The notes beneath the pieces were generated by a model. That model saw only the letters and a list, made by a program, of their open reading frames with translations. It did not search any database and was not told the origin of the DNA. A stretch of DNA of 24,000 bases from Galliscardovia ingluviei (GTDB lineage: Bacteria > Actinomycetota > Actinomycetes > Actinomycetales > Bifidobacteriaceae): assembly GCF_014635685.1 (NCBI RefSeq), contig NZ_BMDH01000006.1:48318-72317 (forward strand), written 5' to 3'. Positions 1,814 to 19,182 of the stretch are shown one piece after another (the first letter of the stretch is position 1; every line of letters begins with the position of its first letter). A program made the position numbers and the translations under genes.

Positions 1814-1869
1814 TGCGGCAGTCAATGCGAAAACTAGCCCCACAGTGCACTACAGCATAGTATTAAAAC
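1814..1869 (+). promoter_or_regulatory. repeated promoter cassette, copy 1
   Basis: TGCGGCAG 1814-1821, AAACTAG 1831-1837, CTACAGCA then TAGTAT 1858-1863 followed by TAAAAC. The box1-to-hexamer gap is 36 nt. A G-poor leader and AGGAG precede ATG 1909. Confidence 0.55.
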
Positions 1870-1908
1870 TACACACGCAAACAGGTACACGCACGTTAGG
1901 AGCACATC

Positions 1909-2466
1909 ATGGAACCGAATCAGAACAACACTCTACGCCAAGAACTCACTGTATGGGCAAAATTATGGCTCAGGTGGGTTGATGATACCGTATCCCTTGA
2001 CGAGGAAGAGAGGGACGTTCTTGTCGAATTGGCTACGCGCAACCGTGAACTCCGTGACGTGTTCATTTATTCCGCTGTAAGCCACCTGAACATTGAAGAG
2101 CTTATAGCCTTATACAATCCACGAACAACCCACCATGAACTGGGTCGCATGATTAAAAAATCATGGAAATCGCCATTAAACTTGGAGCGCGTGCAGCTTG
2201 TATTAACTCGATTAGATGAGCTTGTGCAAGGCTTAGACATCACGGACGATAACCAGATTATGTTGGACACTGTGCGCGGATATATCGCGTACTGGAGTGC
2301 TCCACTAGTTGAGGACGGAGCGAAGCAGGTTGAACGGTATGTTGAGCATATTGACAGTTTGAAGCCTTACGCCACAGACCCCAAGAATACGATTATGGCT
2401 GAGATTATGCGCTACGGGGTTGAGCATGAAGTGTACCCGACTGGAGTGTTAGAACAAGCAGCGTGA
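1909..2466 (+). CDS. hypothetical protein (185 aa)
   Basis: AGGAGC RBS 7 nt upstream. The gene sits between promoter copy 1 and a terminator, so it appears monocistronic. Confidence 0.65.
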   Translation: MEPNQNNTLRQELTVWAKLWLRWVDDTVSLDEEERDVLVELATRNRELRDVFIYSAVSHLNIEELIALYNPRTTHHELGRMIKKSWKSPLNLERVQLVLTRLDELVQGLDITDDNQIMLDTVRGYIAYWSAPLVEDGAKQVERYVEHIDSLKPYATDPKNTIMAEIMRYGVEHEVYPTGVLEQAA

Positions 2467-2486
2467 TAGCTTGAACGTGCTCGCTG

Positions 2487-2520
2487 GTGGCTAGTAGAAA
2501 CGGCTAGCCACTACTGTTTT
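2487..2520 (+). terminator. intrinsic-terminator-like hairpin
   Basis: GTGGCTAG (2487-2494) pairs with CTAGCCAC (2504-2511) around a 9-nt loop. TACTGTTTT follows. Confidence 0.5.
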
Positions 2521-2575
2521 GCGGCAGCCAGTAGAGAAACTAGTACCCATCATGTTTACAGCCTAGTATTAAAAC
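2520..2575 (+). promoter_or_regulatory. repeated promoter cassette, copy 2
   Basis: TGCGGCAG 2520-2527, AAACTAG 2537-2543, TTACAGCC then TAGTAT 2564-2569 followed by TAAAAC. The gap is 36 nt. The leader TATACACAAACAAAGTTACACGCAAATAAGGAGC runs to ATG 2617. Confidence 0.55.
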
Positions 2576-2616
2576 TATACACAAACAAAGTTACACGCAA
2601 ATAAGGAGCAGGAATC

Positions 2617-3027
2617 ATGACCTACAAGATTGACACTATCCTCATGCAGACCATGCGCGCGCTCGACCGTAACATTCCACGAGGCTACAACTATGGTGTG
2701 GAAATCAATGAGGAAATGAGCACCAACACCACAACCTACTATCGTATTGAGATAGAAAAACGCTTGTCTGAAAACTACACTGCTAGAGCACTCATTAACT
2801 ATGACGTGACCAATAAGCGCGTAGAATCCGTGTCTTTTGTAAACCATCGTCTACACCAACGCGACTGGTATGGTGGCGTGCGAATCCTCAGGGGCAGTAA
2901 AAAGCTCACGTTGCGTCACGCTTTGCAGCTCATGCCTGAAAGCATACTGCTACTTGACGCTAAGCAGGCGTGTGAAGCGAATGACTTGTATGTGGATATG
3001 CTGCGCGCTGAACGTAATTATCTCTAA
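2617..3027 (+). CDS. hypothetical protein, local family F
   Basis: AAGGAGC RBS. The C-terminal part LTLRHALQLMPESILLLD and the terminal AERNYL are shared with 3442, 10708, 11543 and 6169. Confidence 0.65.
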   Translation: MTYKIDTILMQTMRALDRNIPRGYNYGVEINEEMSTNTTTYYRIEIEKRLSENYTARALINYDVTNKRVESVSFVNHRLHQRDWYGGVRILRGSKKLTLRHALQLMPESILLLDAKQACEANDLYVDMLRAERNYL

Positions 3028-3062
3028 ACAGGCGCGTTCGCACAAGTGAAGGAGGAATCTCT

Positions 3063-3350
3063 ATGGAAAAGGATGGCAGGAAAGCGAAATTCCTAAGAAA
3101 ATACTATGGTCGCGGGTTTGACGCTCACATGGTCTATCTCGATTACTTGTATCGTGGACATGAATACACGGTGTATGAGAATCGAGCCCGAGGCAATGAG
3201 CCGTTAGCGTGGCAACATCGTTCCGCACAGGCGCGGATAGACATGCTAATCGAGGAAGAGAATAGACCGAAGAAACCGTACCGGTACGAGGATTCAGCTG
3301 ACGCCGGTTTCGACCTATTCTGGCGACTCGTTGAGGGTGATGAGGAGTGA
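3063..3350 (+). CDS. hypothetical protein (95 aa)
   Basis: GAAGGAGGAA RBS 7 nt upstream. The composition is basic then acidic. I do not recognise a family. Confidence 0.65.
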   Translation: MEKDGRKAKFLRKYYGRGFDAHMVYLDYLYRGHEYTVYENRARGNEPLAWQHRSAQARIDMLIEEENRPKKPYRYEDSADAGFDLFWRLVEGDEE

Positions 3351-3441
3351 GCTACTATATCTAACCATGCTACTGGTGTGCTAAGCGCATGGGTTTGGCA
3401 CACCACTCTAGAGCATATACCTCTTGTAAAGGATACATATT

Positions 3442-3858
3442 ATGGAAACCACAATGATAAGCACTATGCTGAATGCCGTGCAGGATACGCTCAATTGTGA
3501 GGCGGAACGCTTACTGCGCCCTTATGTGTCTGACGATTACGAAATTACCGCGGAATTTTACGGAGACGAATTTTACAGCATTGATTCCATTAAAATCACG
3601 GTGATTCACCGTGACGATAATGGCGTGCGCGATGTGACATTGATAGCGGACGCGGAGAGAAACTATCTCATCAATAGCGCGAACGTAACCTATTTCAGGC
3701 ACGGATACGGCAACCGTAAAGGCTGGAAGAACCCGAAAACCACCCTAGAGCATATCGCGCCACGTATTCGTGAAGCGTTACGCTGGCTGGAGGCAGGCGA
3801 CACGGAACAAGCAAGCGCATACCTCGCGGGATTAACTCATTCCACATACACCAATTAA
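3442..3858 (+). CDS. hypothetical protein, local family F
   Basis: AAAGGA lies upstream. It contains AERNYL and TTLEHIAPRIREALRWLE, matching the family F motif. ATG 3454 is an alternative start. Confidence 0.6.
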   Translation: METTMISTMLNAVQDTLNCEAERLLRPYVSDDYEITAEFYGDEFYSIDSIKITVIHRDDNGVRDVTLIADAERNYLINSANVTYFRHGYGNRKGWKNPKTTLEHIAPRIREALRWLEAGDTEQASAYLAGLTHSTYTN

Positions 3859-3869
3859 GGAGCACCATC

Positions 3870-4376
3870 ATGCAATACACTATTTTTAGAGACCACAATG
3901 TCACGGTAGTGCATGTCACCACAGCGGACGATAAGAGCGTGCACGACCGTGAACATATTTGCGCTGGCTTTTATCTTACAGAAGATGATTATAAGACGAT
4001 TGCTCGCGAGTTCGGTATCCCTGTCGATAACGTTAATGATTTTATCGATATCATTAAAAATTGCATGGTGAAAACCGAAGAACACTACCAGTGCGAATGG
4101 TTTCCCAACAACGCCATTGAAGGCTACGACATTCGCTGCCGCTACGCGGTTGTATGGGCAGGTAAACTCACTGAGCGTGCTCTTCTTTTCATAACTGTGA
4201 AGGATAGGAAAATGTGCCTCTACGACAATGCGGAAGCGCAACGTTTAGTAGACGAGGACAGTTTAAGACGCGCTCAAGCACGATACCAGTCTGAGCTTTA
4301 TGAAGCGGAGTTGGAACAGCAAGCGCTCGATGACGCTTTTTGGGGCGAATGTCACCGGTCTGTTCGTGAGGCTTAA
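3870..4376 (+). CDS. hypothetical protein (168 aa)
   Basis: AAGGAGC RBS 7 nt upstream, only 11 nt after the previous stop. Confidence 0.65.
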   Translation: MQYTIFRDHNVTVVHVTTADDKSVHDREHICAGFYLTEDDYKTIAREFGIPVDNVNDFIDIIKNCMVKTEEHYQCEWFPNNAIEGYDIRCRYAVVWAGKLTERALLFITVKDRKMCLYDNAEAQRLVDEDSLRRAQARYQSELYEAELEQQALDDAFWGECHRSVREA

Positions 4377-4473
4377 CTGGAGCGGATTTCCCAAGCGGAG
4401 CGAGTGAAGAAAGAGCGTGAAGAGCTTGAAGAGAATCAACGGTTGTCCCATCATCTTTTTTGAGGAGGTCATC

Positions 4474-4851
4474 ATGAGAGCAGTTCAGCCAAAAATTGTC
4501 ATCGCTAAAATTCAGCGTCAATACTGGAACGCCATCGCACGAGGTGAAAAAACGCTTGAAATACGCGATGAATACATTCCTGCGCAATACATGGTGTTCA
4601 CTGACCTAGAGGGCGAGCGTGTGTATGGTGTTTGTCGAGTTAAGGGTATTACTACGCTGTCTGCCGGTTTGGTTGAGCTGCCTATTGGTGCTTGTTGTAC
4701 GGTTGCACAGTTGGCTGCGTGTTACCCTCATGCGGTAGATGAGGGGTGTACGGTTCGTCCGTTGTATGCGTATAGTGTTGAGCTACTATCTTGCGAGGCA
4801 GTGTTTACGAGGGTTATGCGAGAAAGCTCGGGATTTTTAATCCCGAGATGA
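4474..4851 (+). CDS. ASCH-like (PUA-fold) domain protein
   Basis: GAGGAGG lies 6 nt upstream of ATG 4474, so the listed 4417 start is an extension. The N-terminus IAKIQRQYWNAIARGEKTLEIRDEY matches the ASCH pattern (x..I..G.KT.E.R). The call rests on motif memory, not a search. A strong hairpin sits at the 3' end, CTCGGGAT 4827-4834 pairing with ATCCCGAG 4840-4847. Confidence 0.55.
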   Translation: MRAVQPKIVIAKIQRQYWNAIARGEKTLEIRDEYIPAQYMVFTDLEGERVYGVCRVKGITTLSAGLVELPIGACCTVAQLAACYPHAVDEGCTVRPLYAYSVELLSCEAVFTRVMRESSGFLIPR

Positions 4852-4910
4852 ATCACGCGGGACGCATGAACTACAAATAGCAACAGTCAATCGAAAAAAA
4901 GGAATACATT

Positions 4911-5579
4911 ATGAATACATGGATTATTCTCGCAGACGGCTCAGCGTCAAACAGTGATGGCACTACGTTGAGCGCTGAACAAGTAGAAGAGCTTGCTACA
5001 AACTATTTCGAGCGGTACGGCGAACCAAAACCAAAAGGGAATGGATACTACATCACACGGCACGGCGAACTCATTAAAAAAGTATGGAGAGGTGGCTGGG
5101 AGCATTACGACCTTGATAAGCAGGATTATACTGTATGGGCTACAGGTGAGGAAGAGACCCTAGATTGGAATGTTGTGCTCCAAGAGTTCGGTAAGGATGC
5201 CTTCCCAGTAAAGCGAGTTACTAAACCGATGCTCGCTAATCTTGCGCAATCCCCAACGGAAAAATGGACTATTCGCACAGACGGGGCAACACAATCCGGT
5301 GACAGTATTACGTTGAACGCTGAGCAAACACGAGCATTTATGCTTGCAACCTTGGAACAGTTTTTTGATGAACCAAAAGAGAAGGCGCCTTATGCCGCGC
5401 GCAATGGCGACCTACTGTGGAAAATCAGAGATGGTTATTGGTATCGTTTTACTTTTGAAGACTCTGGAGACTATCACTACATTGAAGATGGAAATTGGGA
5501 GGACATGCTGGAATCGTACGCGAGAGATGATTTGCCAGTGAAAAAACTGAGCAAACAGCTTTTCGCCAACCTTGTTTAA
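4911..5579 (+). CDS. acidic W/Y-rich repeat protein, local family C (internal 2x duplication)
   Basis: The two halves align: W(I/T)I..DG...S....TL.AEQ ... G.L..K...G.W ... (F/L)PVK(R/K)..K..(L/F)ANL. The module is shared with 6896..7978. Confidence 0.7.
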   Translation: MNTWIILADGSASNSDGTTLSAEQVEELATNYFERYGEPKPKGNGYYITRHGELIKKVWRGGWEHYDLDKQDYTVWATGEEETLDWNVVLQEFGKDAFPVKRVTKPMLANLAQSPTEKWTIRTDGATQSGDSITLNAEQTRAFMLATLEQFFDEPKEKAPYAARNGDLLWKIRDGYWYRFTFEDSGDYHYIEDGNWEDMLESYARDDLPVKKLSKQLFANLV

Positions 5580-5605
5580 TTCCGTAATAAGATTCAAGAT
5601 TACAG

Positions 5606-5661
5606 TGCGGCAACCAGCAAGAGAACATGACACTGTAATGCTCCACAGCCTACAATAAAAG
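5606..5661 (+). promoter_or_regulatory. repeated promoter cassette, copy 3
   Basis: TGCGGCAA 5606-5613, then CTCCACAGCC and TACAAT 5651-5656 followed by AAAAGC. The gap is 37 nt. The inverted repeat ATTACAGTG 5599-5607 / CACTGTAAT 5631-5639 overlaps it. The leader ATACACAAACACGCAAAGTAAGGAGT follows. Confidence 0.5.
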
Positions 5662-5693
5662 CATACACAAACACGCAAAGTAAGGAGTACACC

Positions 5694-6086
5694 ATGTCTG
5701 TTGCAATCGTAGGTAACACAGGAATTAACGCTATCGCTCACGCTGCAAGTTCGTTTATCTATGAGTATGGACAATTTCTCTCAACGGAAGAAAAACTGCC
5801 GATAACAACGTTTGATATTACAACTATTGGGCAGTACCTGTATCAGCGCAATATGGATGCTTTTAACCAGCGCTATTGCGGGGATAATCCTGCCCCACAG
5901 TTCAAGCCGTATTATAGCGATGATATTTCACCAGTATTCACGCTTGCCGCTATCGATGCTTACCTCTATCAAGTGTCCGACTTGTATGATGATAAACTCA
6001 CTTATCTGCTCACACAGGCACGCTTGTATACCATCGAAACAATGGACGGATATGACGAAGCATGGCGACAAGCCATGAGTAACTAG
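5694..6086 (+). CDS. hypothetical protein, local family B
   Basis: AAGGAGT RBS. Paralogue of 9898..10242, sharing MSVAI(V/L)GN.GI..IA.AA, LYQRN(M/I)DA(F/W)N, AY.YQV.DL.D and DGYD(E/D)AW. Confidence 0.7.
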   Translation: MSVAIVGNTGINAIAHAASSFIYEYGQFLSTEEKLPITTFDITTIGQYLYQRNMDAFNQRYCGDNPAPQFKPYYSDDISPVFTLAAIDAYLYQVSDLYDDKLTYLLTQARLYTIETMDGYDEAWRQAMSN

Positions 6087-6092
6087 TCTACA

Positions 6093-6124
6093 AGCGCTCG
6101 TATTGTTCGGGCGCTTTCTTTTTT
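6093..6124 (+). terminator. Rho-independent terminator
   Basis: AGCGCTCG (6093-6100) pairs with CGGGCGCT (6108-6115), with one G.U pair and a 7-nt loop. TTCTTTTTTT follows. Confidence 0.75.
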
Positions 6125-6168
6125 AGGGACGCATGAAGTTGTGATAACAACAAAGTAAGGGGAACACC

Positions 6169-6858
6169 ATGGAACTGAAACAACAACTTGAACAAGTAGC
6201 AACACCAATGTTCACCACATTCAAACTCAACGTGCGCACAAAAGACGGTATCACTTATGCGAACATTGAAGGCAGTATATCAAACGCTAAAAACCCACGA
6301 ATCGTGATAAACCTAGAAGTAGACGCGGGCAAACAGCTTATCAAATCGGTAAAAATATACGCGACCGACAATAGTAACGCTTTTTTCCCATGGAACATGT
6401 ACACGTGGAACGAACCCATATATGACAAGTGTCAAATACTACCCATATACAACAAGTATCGAATACTGCCTGTAGAGACATGCTTGCAACTATTACCCGA
6501 AGTTGTGCGCCATGCAAGCGCCAACCAACACGGCGCGGAACAGTCACTCTACGAAGCGTCCAAACACGTTGAAACAACCCTTCTAACATTTATCAACATG
6601 GTAGAGCATTGCGCGTCAAACGGAGAGCAAGTACACGTCTTAGATGTCAGCAAACAGGACGGAGTTTTCCGCATAGTCGTACAACCACCATACGAACAGT
6701 TCGACCGGTTTTTTCACACCACTTTGTTTGAAATCAACGTCAGTACGCTCACCCTACAGCGGGTTGCAACAAGAAGTATTAAAGGCTACTCGTCTGCACC
6801 GCACAACCTGCCACTCACTGCTATCCCGCCGGACGCGCTACGCGGACTTCTAACCTAG
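6169..6858 (+). CDS. hypothetical protein related to family F (two family-F-like halves)
   Basis: AAGGGGA RBS. LPVETCLQLLPEVVRHA mid-protein and LPLTAIPPDALRGLL at the C-terminus resemble the family F motif. It contains a 27-nt tandem duplication (6415-6441 / 6442-6468). Confidence 0.65.
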   Translation: MELKQQLEQVATPMFTTFKLNVRTKDGITYANIEGSISNAKNPRIVINLEVDAGKQLIKSVKIYATDNSNAFFPWNMYTWNEPIYDKCQILPIYNKYRILPVETCLQLLPEVVRHASANQHGAEQSLYEASKHVETTLLTFINMVEHCASNGEQVHVLDVSKQDGVFRIVVQPPYEQFDRFFHTTLFEINVSTLTLQRVATRSIKGYSSAPHNLPLTAIPPDALRGLLT

Positions 6859-6895
6859 AAGCATTCGCCCATGCCCCTATGGAAAGGAAAAACCC

Positions 6896-7978
6896 ATGAG
6901 TAACACACTACAGAATCTAGCATCCAATGTTACTGTAATCGAACACAACAACGGCGACACCGACCTCGTATTCTACACGAACGGCGTAGGATACATCACC
7001 CAAAAAATAACCATAAACAGCACACTCGCCCATCAGCTCTACCTTGAGCTCAAGCAACACTTTGAGCAGGAACTCTATGCCGAACCCGAAGAGCTCGGCA
7101 TGTACGTCACACAGCAAGGTAGTCTCCTACTCAAAGACAGGCGTGGCTGGTCATACTACACCAAGACAGCAGACGGCATAGACCAGTGGACGGGTGGCAA
7201 ATGGTATACAACCGACTGGCAGCTTGTTGTGGGCGACCTTGGAGCGGAAGCGTTCCCACTCGCGCCAATCAGCCAAGAACCGTTTGCGGAGCTTATTGCA
7301 GAAGCAAACGTGAAGGCAACGTTTACCCTACCACAAGAGCACGCGGACATACCAGAAGAACCCGTAGAGCCCGGCATGTATGCCGCACCAAACGGTCTCA
7401 CCCTATTCAAGGATGAGAACGGAGACTGGACGCGAAGAATGTATCCGTACTCGGAAGAAGAATTTTGGTGTGGAGAAATCTACCACGATATGGATGACTG
7501 GCGTGACATAACCCGGACGGTAGGCTATGGGATTTTCCCGCTGAAAAAAATAGAACTAGAGGACATCATACAGTTCGCAACCAAGCAACAAGACAAGGAG
7601 CAAAATATCACATCTAACATCTTTGAAGAACCCGAACCCGTGGGACTATATCTCACGCAAGACGGCAGAATCGTATCTAACGATGAATACGGGTACTGGA
7701 AGCTACGCACCCAAGAACTCGCATGGAATGACCCTGTTGCCGACTTGGACGAACAGCACTACGACACGGACTTTTGGGAGGATTTTGTCGAAGAGCACCT
7801 GCACGCTCGGGCGCTACCTCTCGTGCAGATAACGCCGGAAATGCTCGCCAACGCCTGCCTACAAGTAGTACACAACAGGCAAGAAGAAAACATAGAAGAG
7901 TTTATTAACCAGCCGTTCAGCAGTGCACTCATATTCCAGCAGCTCATTAACCAAACGCGAAACAACAGGAAGGACTAA
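6896..7978 (+). CDS. acidic W/Y-rich repeat protein, local family C (3 repeat modules)
   Basis: Three modules start at EPEELGMYVTQQGSL, EEPVEPGMYAAPNGL and EEPEPVGLYLTQDGR. Each ends in (F/L)PL...I......(A/F). They are homologous to the modules of 4911..5579. Confidence 0.75.
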   Translation: MSNTLQNLASNVTVIEHNNGDTDLVFYTNGVGYITQKITINSTLAHQLYLELKQHFEQELYAEPEELGMYVTQQGSLLLKDRRGWSYYTKTADGIDQWTGGKWYTTDWQLVVGDLGAEAFPLAPISQEPFAELIAEANVKATFTLPQEHADIPEEPVEPGMYAAPNGLTLFKDENGDWTRRMYPYSEEEFWCGEIYHDMDDWRDITRTVGYGIFPLKKIELEDIIQFATKQQDKEQNITSNIFEEPEPVGLYLTQDGRIVSNDEYGYWKLRTQELAWNDPVADLDEQHYDTDFWEDFVEEHLHARALPLVQITPEMLANACLQVVHNRQEENIEEFINQPFSSALIFQQLINQTRNNRKD

Positions 7979-7980
7979 CC

Positions 7981-8418: not shown

Positions 8419-8437
8419 CAGGCTCACAGCGCATGTT

Positions 8438-8493
8438 TGCGGCGTACATTGAGGAAACTAGCCTCAATGTGCACTACGGCATAGTATAAAAGC
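8438..8493 (+). promoter_or_regulatory. repeated promoter cassette, copy 4
   Basis: TGCGGCGT 8438-8445, AAACTAG 8455-8461, TAGTAT 8482-8487. The gap is 36 nt. The AAACTAG box forms the loop of a perfect 9-bp hairpin, ACATTGAGG 8446-8454 pairing with CCTCAATGT 8462-8470. Confidence 0.55.
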
Positions 8494-8524
8494 GTACACG
8501 TAAACACGTTAAGGAGTACCCGCC

Positions 8525-8932: not shown

Positions 8933-8945
8933 TCATGCTCACGTT

Positions 8946-9001
8946 TACGGCTACTACTCATGAAACTAGCTCCACAACGTACTACAGCATAGAATAAAAC
9001 T
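8946..9001 (+). promoter_or_regulatory. repeated promoter cassette, copy 5
   Basis: TACGGCTA 8946-8953, AAACTAG 8963-8969, CTACAGCA then TAGAAT 8990-8995 followed by AAAAC. The gap is 36 nt. The leader is TGTACACGCAAAGTAAGGAGT. Confidence 0.55.
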
Positions 9002-9028
9002 GTACACGCAAAGTAAGGAGTGCATACC

Positions 9029-9807: not shown

Positions 9808-9863
9808 TGCGGCAGACAATCAAATAATTCGATTCACCATGTCTCACAGCCTATTATAAAAAT
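9808..9863 (+). promoter_or_regulatory. repeated promoter cassette, copy 6
   Basis: TGCGGCAG 9808-9815, CACCATGTCTCACAGCC, TATTAT 9852-9857 followed by AAAAA. The gap is 36 nt. The middle AAACTAG box is not conserved here. Confidence 0.5.
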
Positions 9864-9897
9864 ATAAACAAAAGCACACAAGACAAGGAGCATCACA

Positions 9898-10613: not shown

Positions 10614-10669
10614 TGCGGCTAGGGCTCACGAAAGTAGCTCTAGCCACACTCAAAGCCTATTATCGAAAC
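10614..10669 (+). promoter_or_regulatory. repeated promoter cassette, copy 7
   Basis: TGCGGCTA 10614-10621, AAAGTAG 10631-10637, CTCAAAGCC then TATTAT 10658-10663. The gap is 36 nt. An imperfect hairpin (GCTAGgGCT / AGCtCTAGC) spans the middle box. Confidence 0.5.
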
Positions 10670-10707
10670 ATAAACAAAGAAAACACACAGGACAAGGGGC
10701 AAACATC

Positions 10708-11462: not shown

Positions 11463-11519
11463 TGCGGCAGGTAAGCAGTGAACTCGCGCCCACCATGTGC
11501 CACAGCATACAATAAAACC
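11463..11519 (+). promoter_or_regulatory. repeated promoter cassette, copy 8
   Basis: TGCGGCAG 11463-11470, GAACTCG 11480-11486, CACCATGTGCCACAGCA then TACAAT 11508-11513 followed by AAAAC. The gap is 37 nt. The leader is CGTACAAAGTAAGGAGC. Confidence 0.55.
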
Positions 11520-11542
11520 GTACAAAGTAAGGAGCATACATT

Positions 11543-11904: not shown

Positions 11905-11961
11905 TGCAGCTGGTGTGCAGCAAACTAGTAGCATACTAGCCTCACAGCATACAATAGAACC
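11905..11961 (+). promoter_or_regulatory. repeated promoter cassette, copy 9
   Basis: TGCAGCTG 11905-11912, AAACTAG 11922-11928, CTCACAGCA then TACAAT 11950-11955. The gap is 37 nt. Confidence 0.5.
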
Positions 11962-11997
11962 GTACAAAACAGTTACACTCATTTTAAGGAGCAAACA

Positions 11998-12297: not shown

Positions 12298-12480
12298 CGA
12301 GCACCGGAGCTTGTCCCTGCCCGGCAGTGATAGCGGAAAAGATTTTTCCTCCTGCTTTTTGTTCCCTTTGAGGGGTGGCGGAACATCTAAGGGGTGATTG
12401 ACTGCACCCCGCCCAAGTTCAGAGCTTGTCCGACTGGGATTCAACGAGTTGCATATAGCCGATTCGTTGAATGTTCATAG
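12292..12480 (-). ncRNA. candidate omega RNA (reRNA) scaffold of TnpB
   Basis: In characterised TnpB systems the guide RNA derives from the tnpB 3' end plus the right end. Here that region holds the hairpins GGGGTG/CACCCC 12391-12410, GGAAAA/TTTTCC 12335-12349 and CGGTG/CACCG 12292-12306. A 10-nt direct repeat GAGCTTGTCC occurs at 12307-12316 and 12422-12431. The extent is not determined. Confidence 0.4.
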
Positions 12481-13543: not shown

Positions 13544-13581
13544 GTGCGGCACCTCCACAAAAACTTTCAATAACAGTAAAA

Positions 13582-13590
13582 ATTATAGCA
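13582..13590 (-). promoter_or_regulatory. extended -10 (TGCTATAAT) for tnpB
   Basis: The reverse complement of 13582-13590 reads TGCTATAAT, about 38 nt upstream of ATG 13543. Confidence 0.45.
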
Positions 13591-13638
13591 TACTATTGAA
13601 AAGAAAGGAAGGCGTTCCTCCCTAGCCACAAGGGCTAA

Positions 13639-13809
13639 GGTATCCACGCTAATAACAATCATGAAGCTATCGACGATATTGAAAACACGGAAATGCTACT
13701 CGCCATCTACATGGCACTCAAAGGGTTCTCCAAGAACGAGAAAGTAGTGTACAAGCGACCAAGCGAACCAGACGAATATTCTACGAGCCTATCAAGGTTC
13801 TTCGCCTAA
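13639..13809 (+). pseudogene. 3' part of the IS-disrupted family E gene
   Basis: An open frame GIHANNNHEAIDDIENTEMLLAIYMALKGFSKNEKVVYKRPSEPDEYSTSLSRFFA* begins right after the IS end, with no start codon or RBS of its own. Its tail weakly resembles the C-terminus of 11132..11431. Confidence 0.45.
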
Positions 13810-13820: not shown

Positions 13821-13867
13821 TGCGGGGGTGTGCGCGACAAGCGCGCACGCCACCACAGCCTAAAAAT
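13821..13867 (+). promoter_or_regulatory. degenerate copy of the promoter cassette
   Basis: TGCGGGGG 13821-13828, hairpin GTGCGCG/CGCGCAC, CACCACAGCC 13851-13860, then TAAAAAT. The spacing is shorter (32 nt) and the hexamer weaker. Confidence 0.3.
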
Positions 13868-13906
13868 CAACCAAACGCAAAAATCGAAACCAAGGAGCAA
13901 ACCACC

Positions 13907-14179
13907 GTGAAAAACAAGTACAAAATCGAAGTTGTATTTAACATGCTCAACCAGCTACCACAAGAACAAAAAGCCTACATGTACAGTGTCCTTGCAGCAC
14001 TATGGTTGGACTTGTCGGCAATAGTGCGCTCAATACGCGAACAAAAGGACGAAGCAAGCGCAAAAGCCTTAACCGACTACGTTTTCTATATCCTCGATAC
14101 CGTGGATGCGAAGCAAGCACAAGCCGCTATTCATGCTCATCGCCAAAAATTAGAGGAGACAACCGTTGAGCAACGTTAA
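13907..14179 (+). CDS. hypothetical protein (90 aa)
   Basis: GTG 13907 lies 8 nt after AAGGAGC. The listed 13820 start would span the promoter-like region. Confidence 0.5.
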   Translation: MKNKYKIEVVFNMLNQLPQEQKAYMYSVLAALWLDLSAIVRSIREQKDEASAKALTDYVFYILDTVDAKQAQAAIHAHRQKLEETTVEQR

Positions 14180-14573
14180 AGCCAGCCAAATAGCCACACT
14201 GAAAGCAACAATCTACCATAAGGACGGTTTCGCAAGCTACGAGTGGGACACCACGCCACAGAAGCTCATAGCCTACTTGCAGGAGCGCATACACGGCGAA
14301 CCGCCACTCATTCTCGAAGCGTTACCATTTGGCACGCCAGCATTACAGCGCCTAGCGCAACAATATTGTAAGCTATACAAGCCAACAATCCCGCTAGAAG
14401 AACGCCAACCAGTTGAACAGCGCATACAGTGCGAACTAGAAAAACTCATAGACGAGCCGATAGAAATACTCTGCCAACTAGCCACCTTGTGCGAATGGGA
14501 AGAACCCGACTTGGAACAGTGGACAGGTACGCTTACGGACGGGCAAACTATTGTAATTAACACTAGCATGTAG
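14166..14573 (+). CDS. hypothetical protein, local family D
   Basis: TTG start after AGAGGAGAC, overlapping the upstream gene by 14 nt. It is a paralogue of 14674..15120 (DEPI(E/T)ILC.LAT..E...PD.E.WTG.L..G..I). Confidence 0.6.
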   Translation: MSNVKASQIATLKATIYHKDGFASYEWDTTPQKLIAYLQERIHGEPPLILEALPFGTPALQRLAQQYCKLYKPTIPLEERQPVEQRIQCELEKLIDEPIEILCQLATLCEWEEPDLEQWTGTLTDGQTIVINTSM

Positions 14574-14587
14574 CGCGACATCACTTC

Positions 14588-14643
14588 TGCGGTAGTCGCT
14601 TTTGAAACTAGCCCCACCTTGTCTCACAGCATAGAATCTAATC
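14588..14643 (+). promoter_or_regulatory. repeated promoter cassette, copy 10
   Basis: TGCGGTAG 14588-14595, AAACTAG 14605-14611, CCCCACCTTGTCTCACAGCA then TAGAAT 14632-14637. The gap is 36 nt. Confidence 0.55.
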
Positions 14644-14673
14644 ATAAGCAAAAACACAAGGAAGGAATACACA

Positions 14674-15120
14674 GTGAACACTATTATTGCCAATCAAGTA
14701 TCTACCCTCACTTGCACACGAGTAGAAGATAGCGACACCTTTGAAACCACAGTGCCAGACCTCATTGATTACATGCAATTCCGCGCGACTAATAGTCCAG
14801 ACCTCATACACGATGAGCTCTACCACTATGGTGGTGAAATGTTCAAAGAACTCACCGAACAGTATCGAGCACTGTACAAGAAGGCAAACGCCGACCCTGT
14901 AGAAACCCCAGTACTACCAGCACCATACAGGCAACAGCAACAGCAGTTAGAACAGCAGATTATAGACAAGTTCACCAGCCTTGCAGACGAGCCTATCACC
15001 ATCTTGTGCTGTCTCGCTACGGTGTTCGAGTATCGAGACCCAGACGAAGAATCATGGACTGGTGTACTCAACAACGGGCACGAAATCATTATCGACATTC
15101 TTAAAATGCGCGTGCTCTAA
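14674..15120 (+). CDS. hypothetical protein, local family D
   Basis: GTG start after GGAAGGAA. Paralogue of 14166..14573. Confidence 0.65.
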   Translation: MNTIIANQVSTLTCTRVEDSDTFETTVPDLIDYMQFRATNSPDLIHDELYHYGGEMFKELTEQYRALYKKANADPVETPVLPAPYRQQQQQLEQQIIDKFTSLADEPITILCCLATVFEYRDPDEESWTGVLNNGHEIIIDILKMRVL

Positions 15121-15133
15121 AACCTTATAGCAA

Positions 15134-15169
15134 GGCGTGTAGTCGGCTTATACCCGCCAACTACACGCC
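15134..15169 (+). other. 10-bp perfect hairpin without a U-tract
   Basis: GGCGTGTAGT (15134-15143) pairs with ACTACACGCC (15160-15169) around a 16-nt loop. It sits between 14674..15120 and 15195..15569, where no cassette promoter is present. Confidence 0.5.
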
Positions 15170-15194
15170 ATCAATATCAAGAGAGGAATAAACC

Positions 15195-15569
15195 ATGAAC
15201 GACACAACCATCAACTTCACCATCACCATGAGCTCACAGGATATTGTGCACAGGATAGCAGAAAAAACCCACGGCACTATCAGCTACTACAAACGCTCAT
15301 ACAAGCTCAGCGCAAAAGCACGCAAAATGCTAGAAAAAACAGAAACATACCGTAATACTGAACAGCTCATAAACGAGCTAGAAGCCACGCCATACGAGTA
15401 CATTAACCAAGAAAAAATTGAACAGTTGCGCACGCAATGCGACAGAGCGTTTTGGCGTGCAGTAACACTATTCAGCGAAATGACCCCACGGGAGCAAGCA
15501 ATCATGGTGAACATGGTTCTCAACTATCCAACAGGTAGCGAACAGGAGCACGTGCAAGCACAAGCATAA
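15195..15569 (+). CDS. hypothetical protein (124 aa)
   Basis: AGAGGAA RBS 6 nt upstream. Confidence 0.6.
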   Translation: MNDTTINFTITMSSQDIVHRIAEKTHGTISYYKRSYKLSAKARKMLEKTETYRNTEQLINELEATPYEYINQEKIEQLRTQCDRAFWRAVTLFSEMTPREQAIMVNMVLNYPTGSEQEHVQAQA

Positions 15570-15575
15570 GCACCG

Positions 15576-15611
15576 TGAGCCTCAATAACGTACACAGGTT
15601 GTTGAGGCTCA
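15576..15611 (+). other. 10-bp hairpin without a U-tract
   Basis: TGAGCCTCAA (15576-15585) pairs with TTGAGGCTCA (15602-15611) around a 16-nt loop, directly after the stop of 15195..15569. Confidence 0.45.
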
Positions 15612-15647
15612 ACTTCGTGCGCGTGTGAGTTTCCCGAAGCAAAGTAG

Positions 15648-15666
15648 CACAGCCTATAATTAAATC
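15648..15666 (+). promoter_or_regulatory. promoter cassette core only (copy 11)
   Basis: CACAGCC then TATAAT 15655-15660 followed by TAAATC. The upstream boxes are not conserved. A G-poor leader runs to ATG 15716. Confidence 0.45.
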
Positions 15667-15715
15667 ACACACAAACACATAAACCCCAACCAACAGTAGA
15701 AACGGAGACAACACT

Positions 15716-16276
15716 ATGAGCGACCTCGCCCGACTAGCAGGACAATTAAACGACACCACACCAACCACCACCATACAAGCCACACCAACCCCACCCAAGC
15801 AGAAGCCAGTGGAGCGGACAGTAGACACCAGTATCCCCGTCACACCACCAGCCGCCGTATACACGGACAAATGGTACTACCATTCTAATCTTGTGCAAGC
15901 AGTCACATTCCTCACGCTAGTATCCTTATTTATCATCATTGACCATCTACCTCCACAAACCAAGCCAGAAGCCAGTGAAATATACCTCATAGTAAACGGG
16001 CTCATCGCCGCCGCAGTATTCGCAGGAATCGCCTATATTGCATTCAAAGTAGTGGAAGAGTTCACAGACAGAGCGCGCAACAATCAAATACGCAAAACTC
16101 TCGAAAACGCCTACGGTCTGAAAGTCAGCCACGTGCTACGCACCGTAGAAGGCTACACCATCACCACGCTGGAATCCGGCGGAGACAACACGTGGCATAC
16201 GAGAGACCAGCGCGTCTACGAGCATGGCACACACTTGTACTTGGGTGAAATCCTAGACGAAGGAGACAACCAGTGA
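15716..16276 (+). CDS. membrane protein with a Pro/Thr-rich N-terminus and two predicted TM helices
   Basis: ACGGAGAC RBS. Hydrophobic stretches are AVTFLTLVSLFIIIDHL and LIVNGLIAAAVFAGIAYIAF. Confidence 0.65.
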   Translation: MSDLARLAGQLNDTTPTTTIQATPTPPKQKPVERTVDTSIPVTPPAAVYTDKWYYHSNLVQAVTFLTLVSLFIIIDHLPPQTKPEASEIYLIVNGLIAAAVFAGIAYIAFKVVEEFTDRARNNQIRKTLENAYGLKVSHVLRTVEGYTITTLESGGDNTWHTRDQRVYEHGTHLYLGEILDEGDNQ

Positions 16277-16572
16277 AACAGCAACAGCCTGAAAACCTCC
16301 TCGAACAAGACGTGCAAGAATACGTGAACGAACACCCTAACGTGAGCGTTGCGGAAGCGTACAGGGACGGGCGTATCACCGACCCAACCGACCGTGAAAT
16401 CTTGGCGGCTAGCCGCTCTATCGGAAAGCATCATGCTCGCACAGTGAAGAAGAATCATGAGCCGGTATTGTACTGCCCGTCTTGTCTTGTGTTTTTTGAC
16501 AGTTGGACTGATGCGAATAAGCATGTGGTTGAGCAGTTGTTGGATGCTATGGCGTTTGAGCGGCAACTGTAG
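16273..16572 (+). CDS. small protein with a C2H2-like element (CPSC...H)
   Basis: GTG 16273 overlaps the upstream TGA (GTGA), with AAGGAG upstream. YCPSCLVFFDSWTDANKHVVE resembles a C2H2 zinc-finger-like segment. Confidence 0.55.
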   Translation: MKQQQPENLLEQDVQEYVNEHPNVSVAEAYRDGRITDPTDREILAASRSIGKHHARTVKKNHEPVLYCPSCLVFFDSWTDANKHVVEQLLDAMAFERQL

Positions 16573-16577
16573 CGTGG

Positions 16578-16635
16578 TGCGGCAGCTTGTTTTTCGGTTT
16601 TGGTTGAGCGTGGTTTCACAGCCTAGTATTACGGT
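16578..16635 (+). promoter_or_regulatory. repeated promoter cassette, copy 12 (drives the bro-ssb block)
   Basis: TGCGGCAG 16578-16585, TTTCACAGCC then TAGTAT 16624-16629. The gap is 38 nt, the middle box is not conserved, and the leader is longer (87 nt). Confidence 0.45.
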
Positions 16636-16716
16636 GCCACTTTTCAGAATCGCGTAATCAGGAGCGGAGTGTACCGCTGCCACAACGGTCGTAACAATAG
16701 TGAAAGGAACAAGATT

Positions 16717-17517
16717 ATGGAACAGAACAGTATCCAACAATACACATTCGAGAACAGTAACATTCGCACGATTGAAGAGAACGGCAATGTGTTGTTTTGC
16801 GGGAAAGATGTCGCTACAGCACTCGGATACACTAACCCAAATAAAGCAATTACAGACCATTGCCATGGGGTAACGAAACGTTACCCCATCGTAGATAGCC
16901 TTGGAAGGACACAAGAAGCACGCTTCATCACAGAAGGTGACGTATACCGTCTCATCGCATCAAGCAAACTCCCCCAAGCAGTCAAATTCGAGCACTGGCT
17001 GTTCGATGAAGTCGTACCCTCAATTCGCAAGCACGGCGCATACATGACCGAACAAACCCTCGAACAAGCACTCACCGACCCCGACTTCCTTATCAGGCTC
17101 GCAACCGAACTTAAAGAAGAAAAACAAGCCCGCCTACAAGCAGAACAAAAAATCCAAGAACTCGAACCCAAAGCCAAACTCATGGAGGACTTTATTAACC
17201 TCGACAGCACGTACAGCGTAGCCGACACCGCCAAACTCTTACGCAACGTAGGCATCAACATGGGGCAAAACCAGCTCTACCAGCAGCTCGCACAAATGCA
17301 CTGGATATTCCGGCGCGAAGGCGCGTGGAAACCCTACGAAACGCACGTGCAAGCAGGAGACTTAGCGCTCAGACCCTACACCAAGCAGGGCAAACACTCA
17401 GACGGCACACCATTCGCCTACCAACCACAGGTGCGTTTAACCGGACGCGGCATCATGCTCCTCACTGGACGGTTAAGTGAGCAGCAACTCCAGCAGGCAC
17501 TCCAAACAGCACTCTAA
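16717..17517 (+). CDS. Bro-N / KilAC-domain antirepressor-like protein
   Basis: ATG 16717 follows GAAAGGAAC. The N-terminus FENSNIRTIEENGNVLFCGKDVATALGY.NPNKAI is Bro-N-like. The C-terminus MEDFINLDSTYSVADTAKLL...GQNQLYQQL...PYETHVQAG is KilAC/ANT-like. Confidence 0.8.
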   Translation: MEQNSIQQYTFENSNIRTIEENGNVLFCGKDVATALGYTNPNKAITDHCHGVTKRYPIVDSLGRTQEARFITEGDVYRLIASSKLPQAVKFEHWLFDEVVPSIRKHGAYMTEQTLEQALTDPDFLIRLATELKEEKQARLQAEQKIQELEPKAKLMEDFINLDSTYSVADTAKLLRNVGINMGQNQLYQQLAQMHWIFRREGAWKPYETHVQAGDLALRPYTKQGKHSDGTPFAYQPQVRLTGRGIMLLTGRLSEQQLQQALQTAL

Positions 17518-17550
17518 CCAACCCACTTAGTCAAACAGAAAGTAACCATT

Positions 17551-17694
17551 GTGAGTGAAAAACAACTCAAAACCATCATCAGCCTCATTGACCAAGGGCA
17601 CAGTGACGCGGAAATCAGCCAACTCACGAACACGCAGCTCCCCGTCATCGCACAAATACGATGGGACTATAATCATAGAAAAATCAGCGTGTAG
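17551..17694 (+). CDS. possible small helix-turn-helix protein (47 aa)
   Basis: GTG start. VSEKQLKTIISLIDQGHSDAEISQLTNTQLPVIAQIRWDYNHRKISV* contains a classic HTH segment. The RBS is weak (GAAAGTAA). It competes with the 5' part of the listed 17555 ORF in another frame. Confidence 0.4.
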   Translation: MSEKQLKTIISLIDQGHSDAEISQLTNTQLPVIAQIRWDYNHRKISV

Positions 17695-17713
17695 ACGGGA
17701 GACTAAACCTACT

Positions 17714-17971
17714 ATGAGAAGCCCATGCCCACAATGCGGGTTCATACAGCTCGCTCTCACTACAAGCGGCTGGAAGTGCATGGCTTGCCAATACAAGCTA
17801 CAGACAGCAAGCCGCACACCACCAAGAACCGTAGCATGGAAGGCGCGCGCTAACAGCGGATACCTCGCCCCCGTCATCAGCTACACGAGCCCAAAACCAG
17901 CACCACCATCCTATGAGCCAACCACGAGCTCGCATCGAAAACGACACCGTAAACAACACCAACACCATTAA
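17714..17971 (+). CDS. possible zinc-ribbon protein with a low-complexity basic tail
   Basis: ATG 17714 has GGGAG 12 nt upstream. CPQCG...CMAC lies at the N-terminus. The P/S/T/H-rich tail could be a composition artefact. Confidence 0.35.
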   Translation: MRSPCPQCGFIQLALTTSGWKCMACQYKLQTASRTPPRTVAWKARANSGYLAPVISYTSPKPAPPSYEPTTSSHRKRHRKQHQHH

Positions 17972-17984
17972 GGAGAACAGTATT

Positions 17985-18419
17985 ATGGCAAACGAACCAC
18001 ACATTGAAATCACCGGATACGCTTCCAACGTGAAACACTGGCAGAACGAGCGCATCACGTTCAGCGTGGCAGTCACCCCATCATATAAAAACCAGCAAGG
18101 GCAGTGGGTGAACCAGCCGACCATGTTCTTTAACGTGTCATGCACGCGCAACGAAACCAAAAAAACGGCGCAGCAGATTGAACAGTTACTGAACAGCGGT
18201 AACGCGGTTCGCGTGCTGGTGACGGGAGCGTTCACTGAATCAGAAAACAAGCAGGGTGGCGCGGCGTTCAAGAATGTTATGCCTGACCGGATTGGTATTG
18301 TGGAATATCATCCGAAACGTAACAGTAGCGCGCCGAACGGTGGCGGTCAGCCGATGTTCCAGCAGCCGCAGTCGGCGGGCGGGCAGGCTTATGACCCTTG
18401 GTCACCTCAAGGCGTATAA
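17985..18419 (+). CDS. ssb: single-stranded DNA-binding protein
   Basis: ATG 17985 lies 9 nt after AAGGAG. The OB-fold-like N-terminus (IEITGYASNV...FSVAV...QGQWVNQPTMFFNVSC...NAVRVLVTGAF) is followed by a G/Q/P-rich tail ending in YDPWSPQGV. Confidence 0.8.
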   Translation: MANEPHIEITGYASNVKHWQNERITFSVAVTPSYKNQQGQWVNQPTMFFNVSCTRNETKKTAQQIEQLLNSGNAVRVLVTGAFTESENKQGGAAFKNVMPDRIGIVEYHPKRNSSAPNGGGQPMFQQPQSAGGQAYDPWSPQGV

Positions 18420-18438
18420 ACTGCCATTGGATATGGTT

Positions 18439-18494
18439 GAGCCTCCTTGTTTTCTGCACGTGTTGTGTGAGAAAGCTAGGAGGCTCTTTTGTTT
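18439..18494 (+). terminator. terminator after ssb
   Basis: GAGCCTCCT (18439-18447) pairs with AGGAGGCTC (18478-18486) around a large 30-nt loop. TTTTGTTT follows. It lies between convergent ssb and hicB. Confidence 0.55.
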
Positions 18495-18864
18495 AGGCGC
18501 TAACAGTGGTACGCAATAACTGATGTACGCGCTGGTAGCTAATACCAAGCAGTGCGCCAATATCCCTCAAGGTCATGCCGTTACTATGCAAACTGAGTGC
18601 GGCTTGACGCTGCTTGTGTTGCGCTTCCTGTTCGAGACGTTGTGCTTCTGCCTTGAGCTGTATAGATTCTTCTACCTCATTTGGAATGGCATATTGGATA
18701 TTGAGTTGTGGGTTTTGTTCGCCCGTAACGACCGTAATAAAGTCTTGTGCCATGCTGCGTATTTCTTTTACGTTAGTCGCCATGGTGTATTGGTCGAGTT
18801 CTGGGATTTCTAGTGCCCAGTATTTTCCGTCTGGTATGGCTCGCACGGTGTATGTTTGGCTCAT
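18493..18864 (-). CDS. hicB: HicB-family antitoxin with a C-terminal HTH
   Basis: YTVRAIPDGKYWALEIPELD..TMATNVKEIRSMAQDFI is HicB-like. The C-terminal MTLRDIGALLGISYQRVHQLL is an HTH. ATG 18864 overlaps the hicA stop (ATGA). GTG 18870 is an alternative start. Confidence 0.8.
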   Translation of the reverse strand: MSQTYTVRAIPDGKYWALEIPELDQYTMATNVKEIRSMAQDFITVVTGEQNPQLNIQYAIPNEVEESIQLKAEAQRLEQEAQHKQRQAALSLHSNGMTLRDIGALLGISYQRVHQLLRTTVSA

Positions 18865-19079
18865 TTCCACCAGTCCTTTCCAAGTTTTTCTGCGGCTTGC
18901 TTGTATATTGAAGCGGTTGTAAGCTCAGGTATTTCTTTATGCCTTGGAATGACAATCATTTTGCCGTCTAGTAGCCAAATGTCGTGGTTGCCTCCTTTGC
19001 GTGGGGCTTGCTCGAATGGCATGTTACGCGCTTTGGCGGCTTTTCGTAGTGCTTTGATGATTGCCTTTTGCTTTGTCAC
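18861..19079 (-). CDS. hicA: HicA-family mRNA-interferase toxin
   Basis: A 72-aa product with KGGNHDIW...IPRHKEIPELTTASIYKQ, matching the HicA pattern (GSH...vP.H.ei..gt...I.kq). GTG start with no RBS. Confidence 0.8.
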   Translation of the reverse strand: MTKQKAIIKALRKAAKARNMPFEQAPRKGGNHDIWLLDGKMIVIPRHKEIPELTTASIYKQAAEKLGKDWWK

Positions 19080-19086
19080 AAAAGCT

Positions 19087-19095
19087 ATTCTACCA
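19087..19095 (-). promoter_or_regulatory. extended -10 (TGGTAGAAT) placed for a leaderless hicA transcript
   Basis: The reverse complement of 19087-19095 is TGGTAGAAT. Only 7 nt separate the hexamer from GTG 19079. The 8-bp palindrome ACAGCTGT at 19106-19113 lies in the -35 zone. Confidence 0.45.
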
Positions 19096-19148
19096 CACTA
19101 GACAAACAGCTGTGAATATGTATCACCAAAAAACCACACCATTGTATT

Positions 19149-19182
19149 GTAGCCTAGTATTAAAGCAATAACACTGTATAAT
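19149..19182 (+). promoter_or_regulatory. promoter region of the nuclease/T4SS operon (cassette-like core plus consensus extended -10)
   Basis: GTAGCC then TAGTAT 19155-19160 followed by TAAAGC resembles the cassette core. TGTATAAT at 19175-19182 is a perfect extended -10, 41 nt before ATG 19224. Confidence 0.45.

Follow-up and report, generated by a model that had tools for sequence, protein, structure and literature searches.

The 24,000-nucleotide stretch of DNA considered here is from Galliscardovia ingluviei, a bacterium of the chicken crop. It (contig NZ_BMDH01000006.1, positions 48,318 to 72,317; referred to as the window) is part of an element that, judged by sequence and gene order, is a distant relative of pMP7017, the conjugative megaplasmid of Bifidobacterium breve. 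Along the accessory genes of this element, and in weaker form ahead of its transfer genes, one module of ~95 nt, made up of a promoter-like part plus a leader, is repeated on the + strand. The block-wise conservation of this cassette is functional and not a by-product of gene duplication, and we propose, with moderate confidence, that its copies are promoters with a sigmaA-type −10 hexamer, which would be governed by one element-encoded DNA-binding factor docking on a composite site upstream of the hexamer.

Number, placement and anatomy of the cassette

The core of the cassette, CACAGCMTANNAT (CACAGCM followed by TAnnAT, with at most one mismatch), has 13 matches on the + strand of the window and none on the − strand, compared with 0.86 expected by chance under a first-order Markov model and a maximum of 5 in 500 simulations; 12 of the 13 are intergenic. 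Within the + strand gene array, each of 12 gaps that are 100 nt or longer holds a copy and none of the shorter ones does; the sole other gap of that length (12298-12418), which is copy-free, adjoins the − strand tnpB gene. With a sequence-only profile (model R1, alignment A2) built from 12 copies, these score 28-57 bits, and two weak partial copies come up, one at 13847 (E = 0.02) and one at 19137 (E = 0.05). A further partial copy lies outside the window, immediately 5' of an FtsK-type coupling-protein gene, on Logan contig L001 (L001:11043-11086). This contig, the only close relative found, matches window 13851-24000 at 98% identity and reaches 9 kb further. All profile matches are on the + strand. 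These counts and the intergenic placement bear out a preliminary description of the window, in which one module had been said to precede 12-14 gene blocks; its further point, that a degenerate form fronts the 'T4SS' operon, now extends to the transfer-gene operon on L001.

Anchored on the hexamer, the consensus reads (T)TTGCGGCAG-N9-(G)AAACTAG-N13-YACAGCM-TAnnAT-(T)AAAAC-nTACAC..AAAG-TAAGGAG-start. Box 1 (TGCGGCAG) is followed after an invariant 9 nt by box 2 ((G)AAACTAG), then after ~13 nt by CACAGCM and directly by the hexamer, with AAACTAG placed 20-21 nt ahead of the hexamer; the spacings between blocks are constant or differ by 1 nt. The distances given in the preliminary description are exact, for the gap between box 1 and hexamer (36 nt in seven copies, 37 in three and 38 in one) as well as for the one between hexamer and start codon (29-55 nt, with 87 nt at bro and 63 nt at the transfer-operon copy). 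Information content follows the blocks, with 1.14 bits per column in box 1, 0.85 in box 2, 1.27 in CACAGCM plus hexamer, 0.89 in AAAAC and 0.43 in the leader, as compared with 0.22 and 0.26 in the first and second spacers, which are unconserved and at background identity among copies. With the hexamer set at −12 to −7, CACAGCM occupies −19 to −13, and the composite site TGCGGCAG-N9-(G)AAACTAG covers 24 bp from about −56 to −33, with its centre near −44. Conservation, earlier described as extending to about −50, thus reaches about −56 in discrete blocks of fixed register. The leader is A/C-rich, 22-48 nt long and ends in an AAGGAG ribosome-binding site (RBS), and the transcription start is predicted ~7 nt 3' of the hexamer.

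All 12 strong copies have a TA..AT hexamer (TAGTAT, TACAAT, TATTAT, TAGAAT or TATAAT), in which T1, A2, A5 and T6 of the sigmaA pattern are kept and positions 3 and 4 are free. The −35 position, described earlier as a poor TTGACA match, is TAGCCC-like and fits the consensus at one to three of six positions in 13 of 14 copies; only the copy with its hexamer at 5651 reaches 5/6. An extended −10 (TGn) is absent from all 14 copies, where −15 to −13 is GCA or GCC. By sigma70-type criteria, the cassettes therefore have the TAnnnT −10 and lack a TTGACA-like −35 at 16-18 nt or a TGn. A promoter-plus-leader anatomy of the module is supported by the TAnnAT hexamer, the fixed distance to the RBS and start codon, the restriction to one strand and the exclusively intergenic position of the module. 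Self-BLAST similarity between copies spans only 26-106 bp and stops near the start codon, and the genes downstream are mostly unrelated, the sole paralogous pair being 5694-6086 and 9898-10242; whole-gene duplication as the main cause of the repeat is ruled out by this confinement of similarity to the cassette. Because the spacings are fixed, the downstream genes are mostly unrelated and similarity ends at the start codon, the conservation is functional. Intact blocks at fixed spacing, separated by randomised spacers in what are evidently old copies, point to selection on discrete sites, and discrete blocks in fixed register up to about −56 argue for a common protein-binding site. Thus, the promoter-like anatomy, the missing −35 and the argument for a common site have held from the earlier interpretation, whereas the dedicated sigma-like factor that it also offered is less likely, given a hexamer of the ordinary sigmaA −10 type.

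The individual copies are listed in Table 1.

Table 1. Copies of the cassette in the window (+ strand) and positions of the second intergenic repeat; scores are those of profile R1.
Feature	Position	Sequence features	Hexamer (start)	Genes fronted	Score
Cassette 1	1814..1908 +	box 1 TGCGGCAG 1814-1821; box 2 AAACTAG 1831-1837; core TACAGCA; leader and RBS after the hexamer	TAGTAT (1858-1863)	1909-2466	52.6 bits
Cassette 2	2520..2616 +		TAGTAT (2564)	block from 2617	51.7 bits
Cassette 3	5606..5693 +	37-nt gap	TACAAT (5651)	5694-6086	47.4 bits
Cassette 4	8438..8524 +		TAGTAT (8482)	DUF3310 gene 8525-8932	52.2 bits
Cassette 5	8946..9028 +		TAGAAT (8990)	9029-9379, 9423-9776	57.4 bits
Cassette 6	9808..9897 +	degenerate box 2	TATTAT (9852)	9898-10242 (paralogue of 5694)	56.5 bits
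Cassette 7	10614..10707 +		TATTAT (10658)	10708-11139, 11144-11431	44.4 bits
Cassette 8	11463..11542 +	37-nt gap	TACAAT (11508)	11543-11893	51.7 bits
Cassette 9	11905..11997 +	box 1 = TGCAGCTG	TACAAT (11950)	11998-12297	43.5 bits
Degenerate copy	13821..13906 +	CACAGCC, then TAAAAA	TAAAAA (13861)	13907-14179, 14166-14573	10.4 bits, E = 0.02
Cassette 10	14588..14673 +	also in L001	TAGAAT (14632)	14674-15120, 15195-15569	57.3 bits
Core-only copy	15648..15715 +	CACAGCC; without boxes 1 and 2	TATAAT (15655)	15716-16276, 16273-16572	38.6 bits
Cassette 11	16578..16716 +	perfect box 1, no box 2; 38-nt gap; 87-nt leader	(16624)	bro 16717-17517, 47-aa HTH ORF 17551-17694, zinc-ribbon ORF 17714-17971, ssb 17985-18419	28.5 bits
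Degenerate copy (weak extra copy)	19142..19223 +	GTAGCC, hexamer, TAAAGCA	TAGTAT (19155)	surface-anchored DUF1524 nuclease gene (19224), AAA_10 ATPase gene (20284), CHAP hydrolase gene	9.2 bits, E = 0.05
GGGACGCATGAA, window	4859-4870, 6126-6137				
GGGACGCATGAA, L166	1660(-), 2964, 3455, 4993, 6706, 9947				
GGGACGCATGAA, L168	908				
GGGACGCATGAA, L002	907				

A terminator-like hairpin (2485-2513) lies ahead of cassette 2, and cassette 3 is the sole copy with a good −35 (ATGACA, 18-nt spacer). The degenerate copy 13821..13906 is located 3' of an insertion of the TnpB-only IS200/IS605 type (window 12298-13808, with the TnpB gene on the − strand at 12419-13570), which breaks the one-directional gene array and is followed, after the TnpB gene, by a truncated open reading frame (ORF) remnant at ~13630-13808. 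L001 starts just past this insertion, as fits an assembly break at a repeated insertion sequence.

Several copies have individual peculiarities. In the bro cassette of L001 (L001:2743-2810, compared with window 16575-16649), the ACAGC of the core is swapped for its exact reverse complement GCTGT, amounting to three changes in 5 bp, and downstream of the altered core is a 117-bp insertion that duplicates the first bro codons. At cassette 8, a 10-bp inverted repeat, TGCTCCTTAC (11449-11458) and GTAAGGAGCA (11525-11534), pairs sequence 5' of the cassette with the cassette's own RBS; it is a single instance, in which RBS masking would be possible in read-through transcripts and not in those started at the cassette. 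Inverted repeats of 9-10 bp between box 1 and the core are present in three cassettes (5598-5639, 8458-8482 and 10631-10658; e.g. ACATTGAGG..CCTCAATGT); they differ in sequence and position and are not common across copies.

The element, its relatives and their standard modules

The genes of the window encode an AAA_10 (VirB4-like) ATPase, a CHAP hydrolase, a Bro-N/KilAC protein, a single-stranded-DNA-binding protein (SSB), a HicAB pair, the TnpB insertion and ~30 ORFans. The AAA_10-family transfer ATPase, the 'T4SS' gene of the preliminary description, is 100% identical to WP_188355773.1 of G. ingluviei, encoded on a 92,946-bp contig, and its next relatives are from Bifidobacterium (44-50% identity). 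Its best plasmid match is in pMP7017 (47% identity over 98% of the length), with which the element also has in common the gene order ATPase, hydrolase, two FtsK-type genes and a ~700-aa gene, as well as a 43%-identical DUF1524 homologue. Neither the window nor L001 yielded a relaxase or oriT, and genes for a sigma factor or an RNA polymerase were not seen in them either; no tRNAs were found in the window, and no homologue of the leftmost window gene was found elsewhere.

The first gene of the transfer block (19224-20282) encodes a secreted DUF1524/GmrSD_C nuclease domain with a signal peptide, a low-complexity linker and an LAQTG sortase-type anchor, and its product is probably a cell-wall-anchored nuclease; the homologue in pMP7017 likewise stands behind that plasmid's own promoter motif. 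Homologues of the transfer ATPase of 1350-1450 aa match the query over only 56% (P0007, P0008, P0010, P0011, P0019-P0023, P0025 and P0028), and the annotation of one of these long proteins as a LAGLIDADG homing endonuclease suggests that the gene is intein-bearing in related elements. Duplication is ongoing inside the accessory array, as seen from nearby paralogues at 1154/1492, 14166/14674 and 4911/6896 (regions 1154-1803, 14166-15120 and 4911-7978), of which 4911/6896 also has internal repeats. The coding strand is rich in A/C and poor in G/T in window 1-1000, 6000-12000, 14000-16000, 17000-18000 and 19000-21000, with AT skew up to +0.49 and GC skew down to −0.30, and the absence of this bias from 2000-6000 and 21000-24000 suggests blocks of different origin.

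Among the contigs compared, only L001 carries the cassette; it was not found in L002-L005 and L110-L113, whose ATPases are 46-50% identical, nor in L166-L169, which share accessory genes with the window, and profile R1 has no match in pMP7017 and the compared relatives. Two patterns, one strict and one looser (the latter fitting six of 11 window copies), were scanned against IMG/VR, 185,579 GTDB genomes and JGI metagenomes, GTDB being taken in as representatives and the host genome outside the window not being included, and yielded nothing or single chance matches in unrelated taxa. A generic host or phage repeat is therefore unlikely. On this sequence comparison, the cassette would qualify as an element-specific motif over the −10 in front of many operons.

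Such motifs are known from the same plasmid group. Dineen et al. 2024 described a conserved 34-bp motif over the −10 in pMP7017, AWAYATGY TATACT GAATATGTCCACATAAAAWA, at 19 promoters mapped from RNA-seq, whose predicted targets are 56 genes (24% of the plasmid); the motif is absent from bifidobacterial chromosomes and was proposed as a transcription-factor site defining a plasmid-specific regulon (PMC10832533). Our scan of pMP7017 for this motif found 26 copies, including those before ssb and the DUF1524 nuclease gene. Other versions are seen in relatives, namely CACGTGA TAyACT N6 GTCCACrCAAAA in L002, TGc TATACT GGAAnn GTTCACAT in L113 and TGC TATACT GATnnn AnATACA in L111. The GTCCACATA matrix of the pMP7017 box ranks only 8482 and 8990 high among the 14 window copies, and a hexamer followed after 5-6 nt by GTmCAC is found in only two window copies; 8482 and 8990 share with L002 the layout hexamer, 6 nt, GTACACGyAAA. 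Common descent with the pMP7017 motif was considered for this GTmCACryAAA likeness (8482, 8990 and L002) and set aside, as the likeness failed the matrix test over all copies and is suggestive only. From these sequences, the principle of an element-wide motif is common to the group, with the upstream composite site and CACAGC being specific to the present lineage.

Orthologous accessory genes can stand behind different modules. Homologues of the cassette-driven gene 5694-6086 are found in Logan contigs at 52-73% identity, and two of these contigs, L166 and L168, have four gene families in common with the window while entirely lacking the main cassette. Their dominant intergenic repeat is GGGACGCATGAA, with seven copies in L166. 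The two copies in the window occupy two gaps that are without the main cassette. As a rule, the repeat comes after a terminator hairpin and T-tract, stands 10-60 nt ahead of a start codon and is directed towards the next gene; no TAnnnT was found at a fixed distance from it. That orthologous genes stand behind different cassettes favours element-level control or homogenisation over gene-specific regulation and fits an element-specific wiring. Three cassette types are thus visible, the window type, GGGACGCATGAA in L166 and the pMP7017 type. In addition, two genes of L167, a phage-like contig with a terminase gene and a homologue of 5694, are preceded by yet another repeat, TTAGAGCACGCACACAACAAAAA (~9935-9960 and ~11385-11410).

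A proposed common factor and the rival explanations

In the proposed model, host RNA polymerase with sigmaA would start at the cassette hexamers, and one element-encoded factor would dock on the composite site and control initiation. This would switch at least 12 transcription units together, namely those of the accessory ('establishment') ORFans and the bro-ssb block, with weaker cassette variants standing before the transfer-gene operons. Since well-expressed promoters of B. breve and pMP7017 have the form TTGACA-N17-TATAAT (PMC5746004, PMC10832533), cassettes with neither −35 nor TGn are predicted to be weak alone or to rely on something else. We favour activation over repression, in the style of a class II activator that would replace the −35, because the −35 and TGn are missing, the register to the −10 is strict and the site is centred near −44. 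Such a centre is typical of −35-replacing activators.

A candidate for the factor is the 47-aa stand-alone ORF (17551..17694, + strand) of the cassette-driven bro-ssb operon. Its product is predicted with high confidence (pLDDT 94) to form a three-helix helix-turn-helix (HTH) with fold likeness to the HTH domains of resolvase (serine recombinase), Pax and IstA (TM 0.75-0.88). Hence, the HTH fold assigned to it previously is backed by a structure prediction; a family assignment is not, with no Pfam match for this ORF and nothing in Pfam and PHROGs for it, the Cys-rich proteins or the zinc-ribbon ORF. We regard the protein as a lead only.

Several points weigh against the model. We infer from sequence that the cassettes are active promoters, that there is a factor and in which direction it acts; the HTH candidate has no family match. 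Promoters of actinobacteria can be functional with no −35, and constitutive expression from the cassettes is therefore conceivable. Copies 15648 and 16578 keep the core without one or both upstream boxes, and the best-conserved block, CACAGC, abuts the −10 and suits a repressor as well as an activator. Moreover, the pMP7017 motif promoters are highly expressed in established carriers, which in itself does not point to tight control (PMC10832533).

Repression would take the form of a 'zygotic induction' regulon, in which the promoters are intrinsically active and the blocks, chiefly CACAGC, are operators of an element-encoded repressor, giving brief expression in a new transconjugant followed by shut-off, as with Reg576 of p576 or phage Aca proteins. 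We consider this possible, if somewhat unlikely. The mechanism has been demonstrated in p576, the closest functional analogue (PMC6294495, PMC8708921), the window has establishment-island-like content (ssb, bro and many small one-directional ORFans) beside transfer genes, the best-conserved block overlaps the spacer and the −10 edge, and the small HTH gene inside a cassette-driven operon would provide negative feedback. However, repressor-held promoters are usually strong and have a good −35, as in p576, whereas the cassettes have neither −35 nor TGn; the number and position of operators vary among p576 promoters, whereas the register of the cassette is strict; and TTATCCC, the operator of Reg576, occurs nowhere on the + strand and in none of the cassettes. 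It is also conceivable that no dedicated factor is involved and that a −10/leader/RBS module was recombined before acquired genes and kept since the host polymerase reads it, the upstream blocks being contacts of RNA polymerase or host factors, or recombination scars. Reuse of promoters before unrelated genes is widespread in prokaryotes (PMC3575422), related elements do carry other standard cassettes before orthologous genes, and the paralogous gene pairs indicate active duplication here. Yet the copies are old, with spacers at background identity, and still hold the GC-rich blocks of −56 to −33 in a strict register, for which neither drift nor generic contacts with polymerase account, the blocks being unlike an UP element or a −35; we thus judge this explanation quite unlikely.

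Transcription by an element-encoded sigma factor or a separate RNA polymerase, rather than by host sigmaA, would make the cassettes a private promoter class and could account for the unusually strong conservation from −19 to +5 and for the non-canonical −35; read directly, GAAAC resembles an ECF-type −35. It is nevertheless very improbable, as the hexamer keeps T1, A2, A5 and T6 of sigmaA, the spacing of GAAAC (22 nt to the hexamer, ~13 nt to any CGT/TGT) is wrong for an ECF promoter, and neither the window nor L001 has a visible gene for such a protein. ECF-, SigF/B- and sigma54-like spacings were all tried, and none fits the cassette sequence. Least credible of all, in our estimate, is that the cassettes act through structure, either as single-stranded-DNA promoters of the Frpo/ssi type or as processing or antitermination sites within a long transcript. 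The single direction of the genes and the presence of ssb recall the leading regions in which Frpo/ssi promoters serve one-directional early genes, including ssb, beside transfer genes (PMC11541004), but those promoters need a long hairpin making the −35 and −10 double-stranded, and there is no such hairpin at the window cassettes. When the 12 copies were folded as DNA, no common fold was found (z-scores +2.0 to −2.0), RNAalifold on the cassette alignment gave 0 pairs, no complement of the core was found within 250 nt on either side (best match with 4-6 mismatches, as in controls), and Rfam had no match at gathering threshold anywhere in the window; at the level of sequence analysis, single-stranded DNA or RNA structure is thereby excluded. 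Intergenic gaps are only 100-150 nt, and an RNA element would leave the fixed-distance TAnnAT unexplained. Integron attC-like boundaries, considered for the repeat-separated gene layout, were rejected, as the repeat has no inverted-repeat structure and includes a −10 and RBS.

Going beyond the common-factor model for the window, each element of the bifidobacterial group might own a private promoter class read via an element-encoded factor, with accessory genes that move between elements being re-fitted with the cassette of the recipient, although we think it unlikely that this holds across the group. The class of the window may then be the −35-replacing TGCGGCAG-N9-GAAACTAG plus CACAGC, and the cassette an exchangeable regulatory 'skin'. 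If true, one switch would serve the establishment genes and would also act, though less strongly, on the operons for transfer. Comparison of pMP7017, L002, L113 and L166 suggests that one standard promoter module per element is kept while its sequence changes, a pattern that makes the co-evolution of promoter and factor directly testable. To our knowledge, conjugation and plasmid regulation have barely been studied in Bifidobacteriaceae, a family with probiotic and gut species. If all cassettes are indeed read by one factor, the early or accessory programme of a conjugative element of this family would depend on a single protein-DNA pair. The cassette also marks a regulon by sequence alone, with ~30 ORFan genes as candidates for a part in establishment or anti-defence, and would be of use in these bacteria as a compact and portable expression module.

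Comparison with known systems

The pMP7017 motif comes from an element of the same broad conjugative group. It and the window cassette are both element-specific conserved sequences that overlap the −10, run into the leader and precede many operons, and in both elements ssb and DUF1524 genes stand behind the element's own cassette. The pMP7017 motif, ATATGT TATACT GAATATGTCCACATAAAA, has an extended −10 (TGn), an invariant GTCCACATA at ~+1 and no conserved upstream boxes, whereas the window cassette has CACAGCM TAnnAT, no TGn and the composite site at −56 to −33.

Conserved sequences also precede the establishment operons of p576 (EGeRS2, with the repressor Reg576) and pLS20 (EGeRS1) (Val-Calvo et al. 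2018, 2021; PMC6294495, PMC8708921). As in the window, these are conserved regulatory sequences ahead of clustered and variable 'establishment' operons on a conjugative plasmid of Gram-positive bacteria, and they were used to define a regulon. EGeRS2 combines a strong canonical sigmaA promoter with dual TTATCCC operators, in contrast to the cassette, which has no −35 and a strict register. EGeRS1 is 400-750 bp long and GC-rich, with many inverted repeats and no promoter, in contrast to the ~95-nt, unstructured cassette with its −10. The ribbon-helix-helix family, that of the p576 repressor, had no match in the family scans of the window proteins. In pKM101 (IncN), as cited in the p576 work, CUP repeats with the regulators ArdK/ArdR are placed before about seven leading-region units (Delver and Belogurov 1997, cited in PMC6294495). 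According to that citing account, CUP repeats resemble the cassette as repeated conserved regions before transcription units, and differ in being >400 bp long, in their Gram-negative host and in their sequence and regulators. The ArdK/ArdR family had no match in the Pfam and PHROGs scans, and when the model of the 47-aa HTH was compared with known folds, ArdK of R388 came only 20th, with a low probability of 0.30.

In promoter architecture, the cassette is reminiscent of the activator-dependent classes of phages, namely T4 middle promoters (MotA/AsiA), the Mor and C promoters of Mu and the Ogr promoters of P2, in which a sigma70-type −10 without −35 is combined with a fixed-register box that replaces or flanks the −35 and is read by an element-encoded factor. 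These classes likewise have many copies across one mobile genome, and their sequences and hosts differ from those here; Ogr-type TGT-N12-ACA is not in the cassettes, and no homologues of the MotA/AsiA, Mor, C or Ogr activators were found. With the pMP7017 motif, the EGeRS of p576 and pLS20 and the CUP repeats of pKM101 all published, the statement in the preliminary description that no element-wide promoter cassette of this form was on record has to be withdrawn. A plasmid-wide promoter motif is already known, including from the same broad plasmid group; what is new here is the sequence of the cassette and its upstream composite site.

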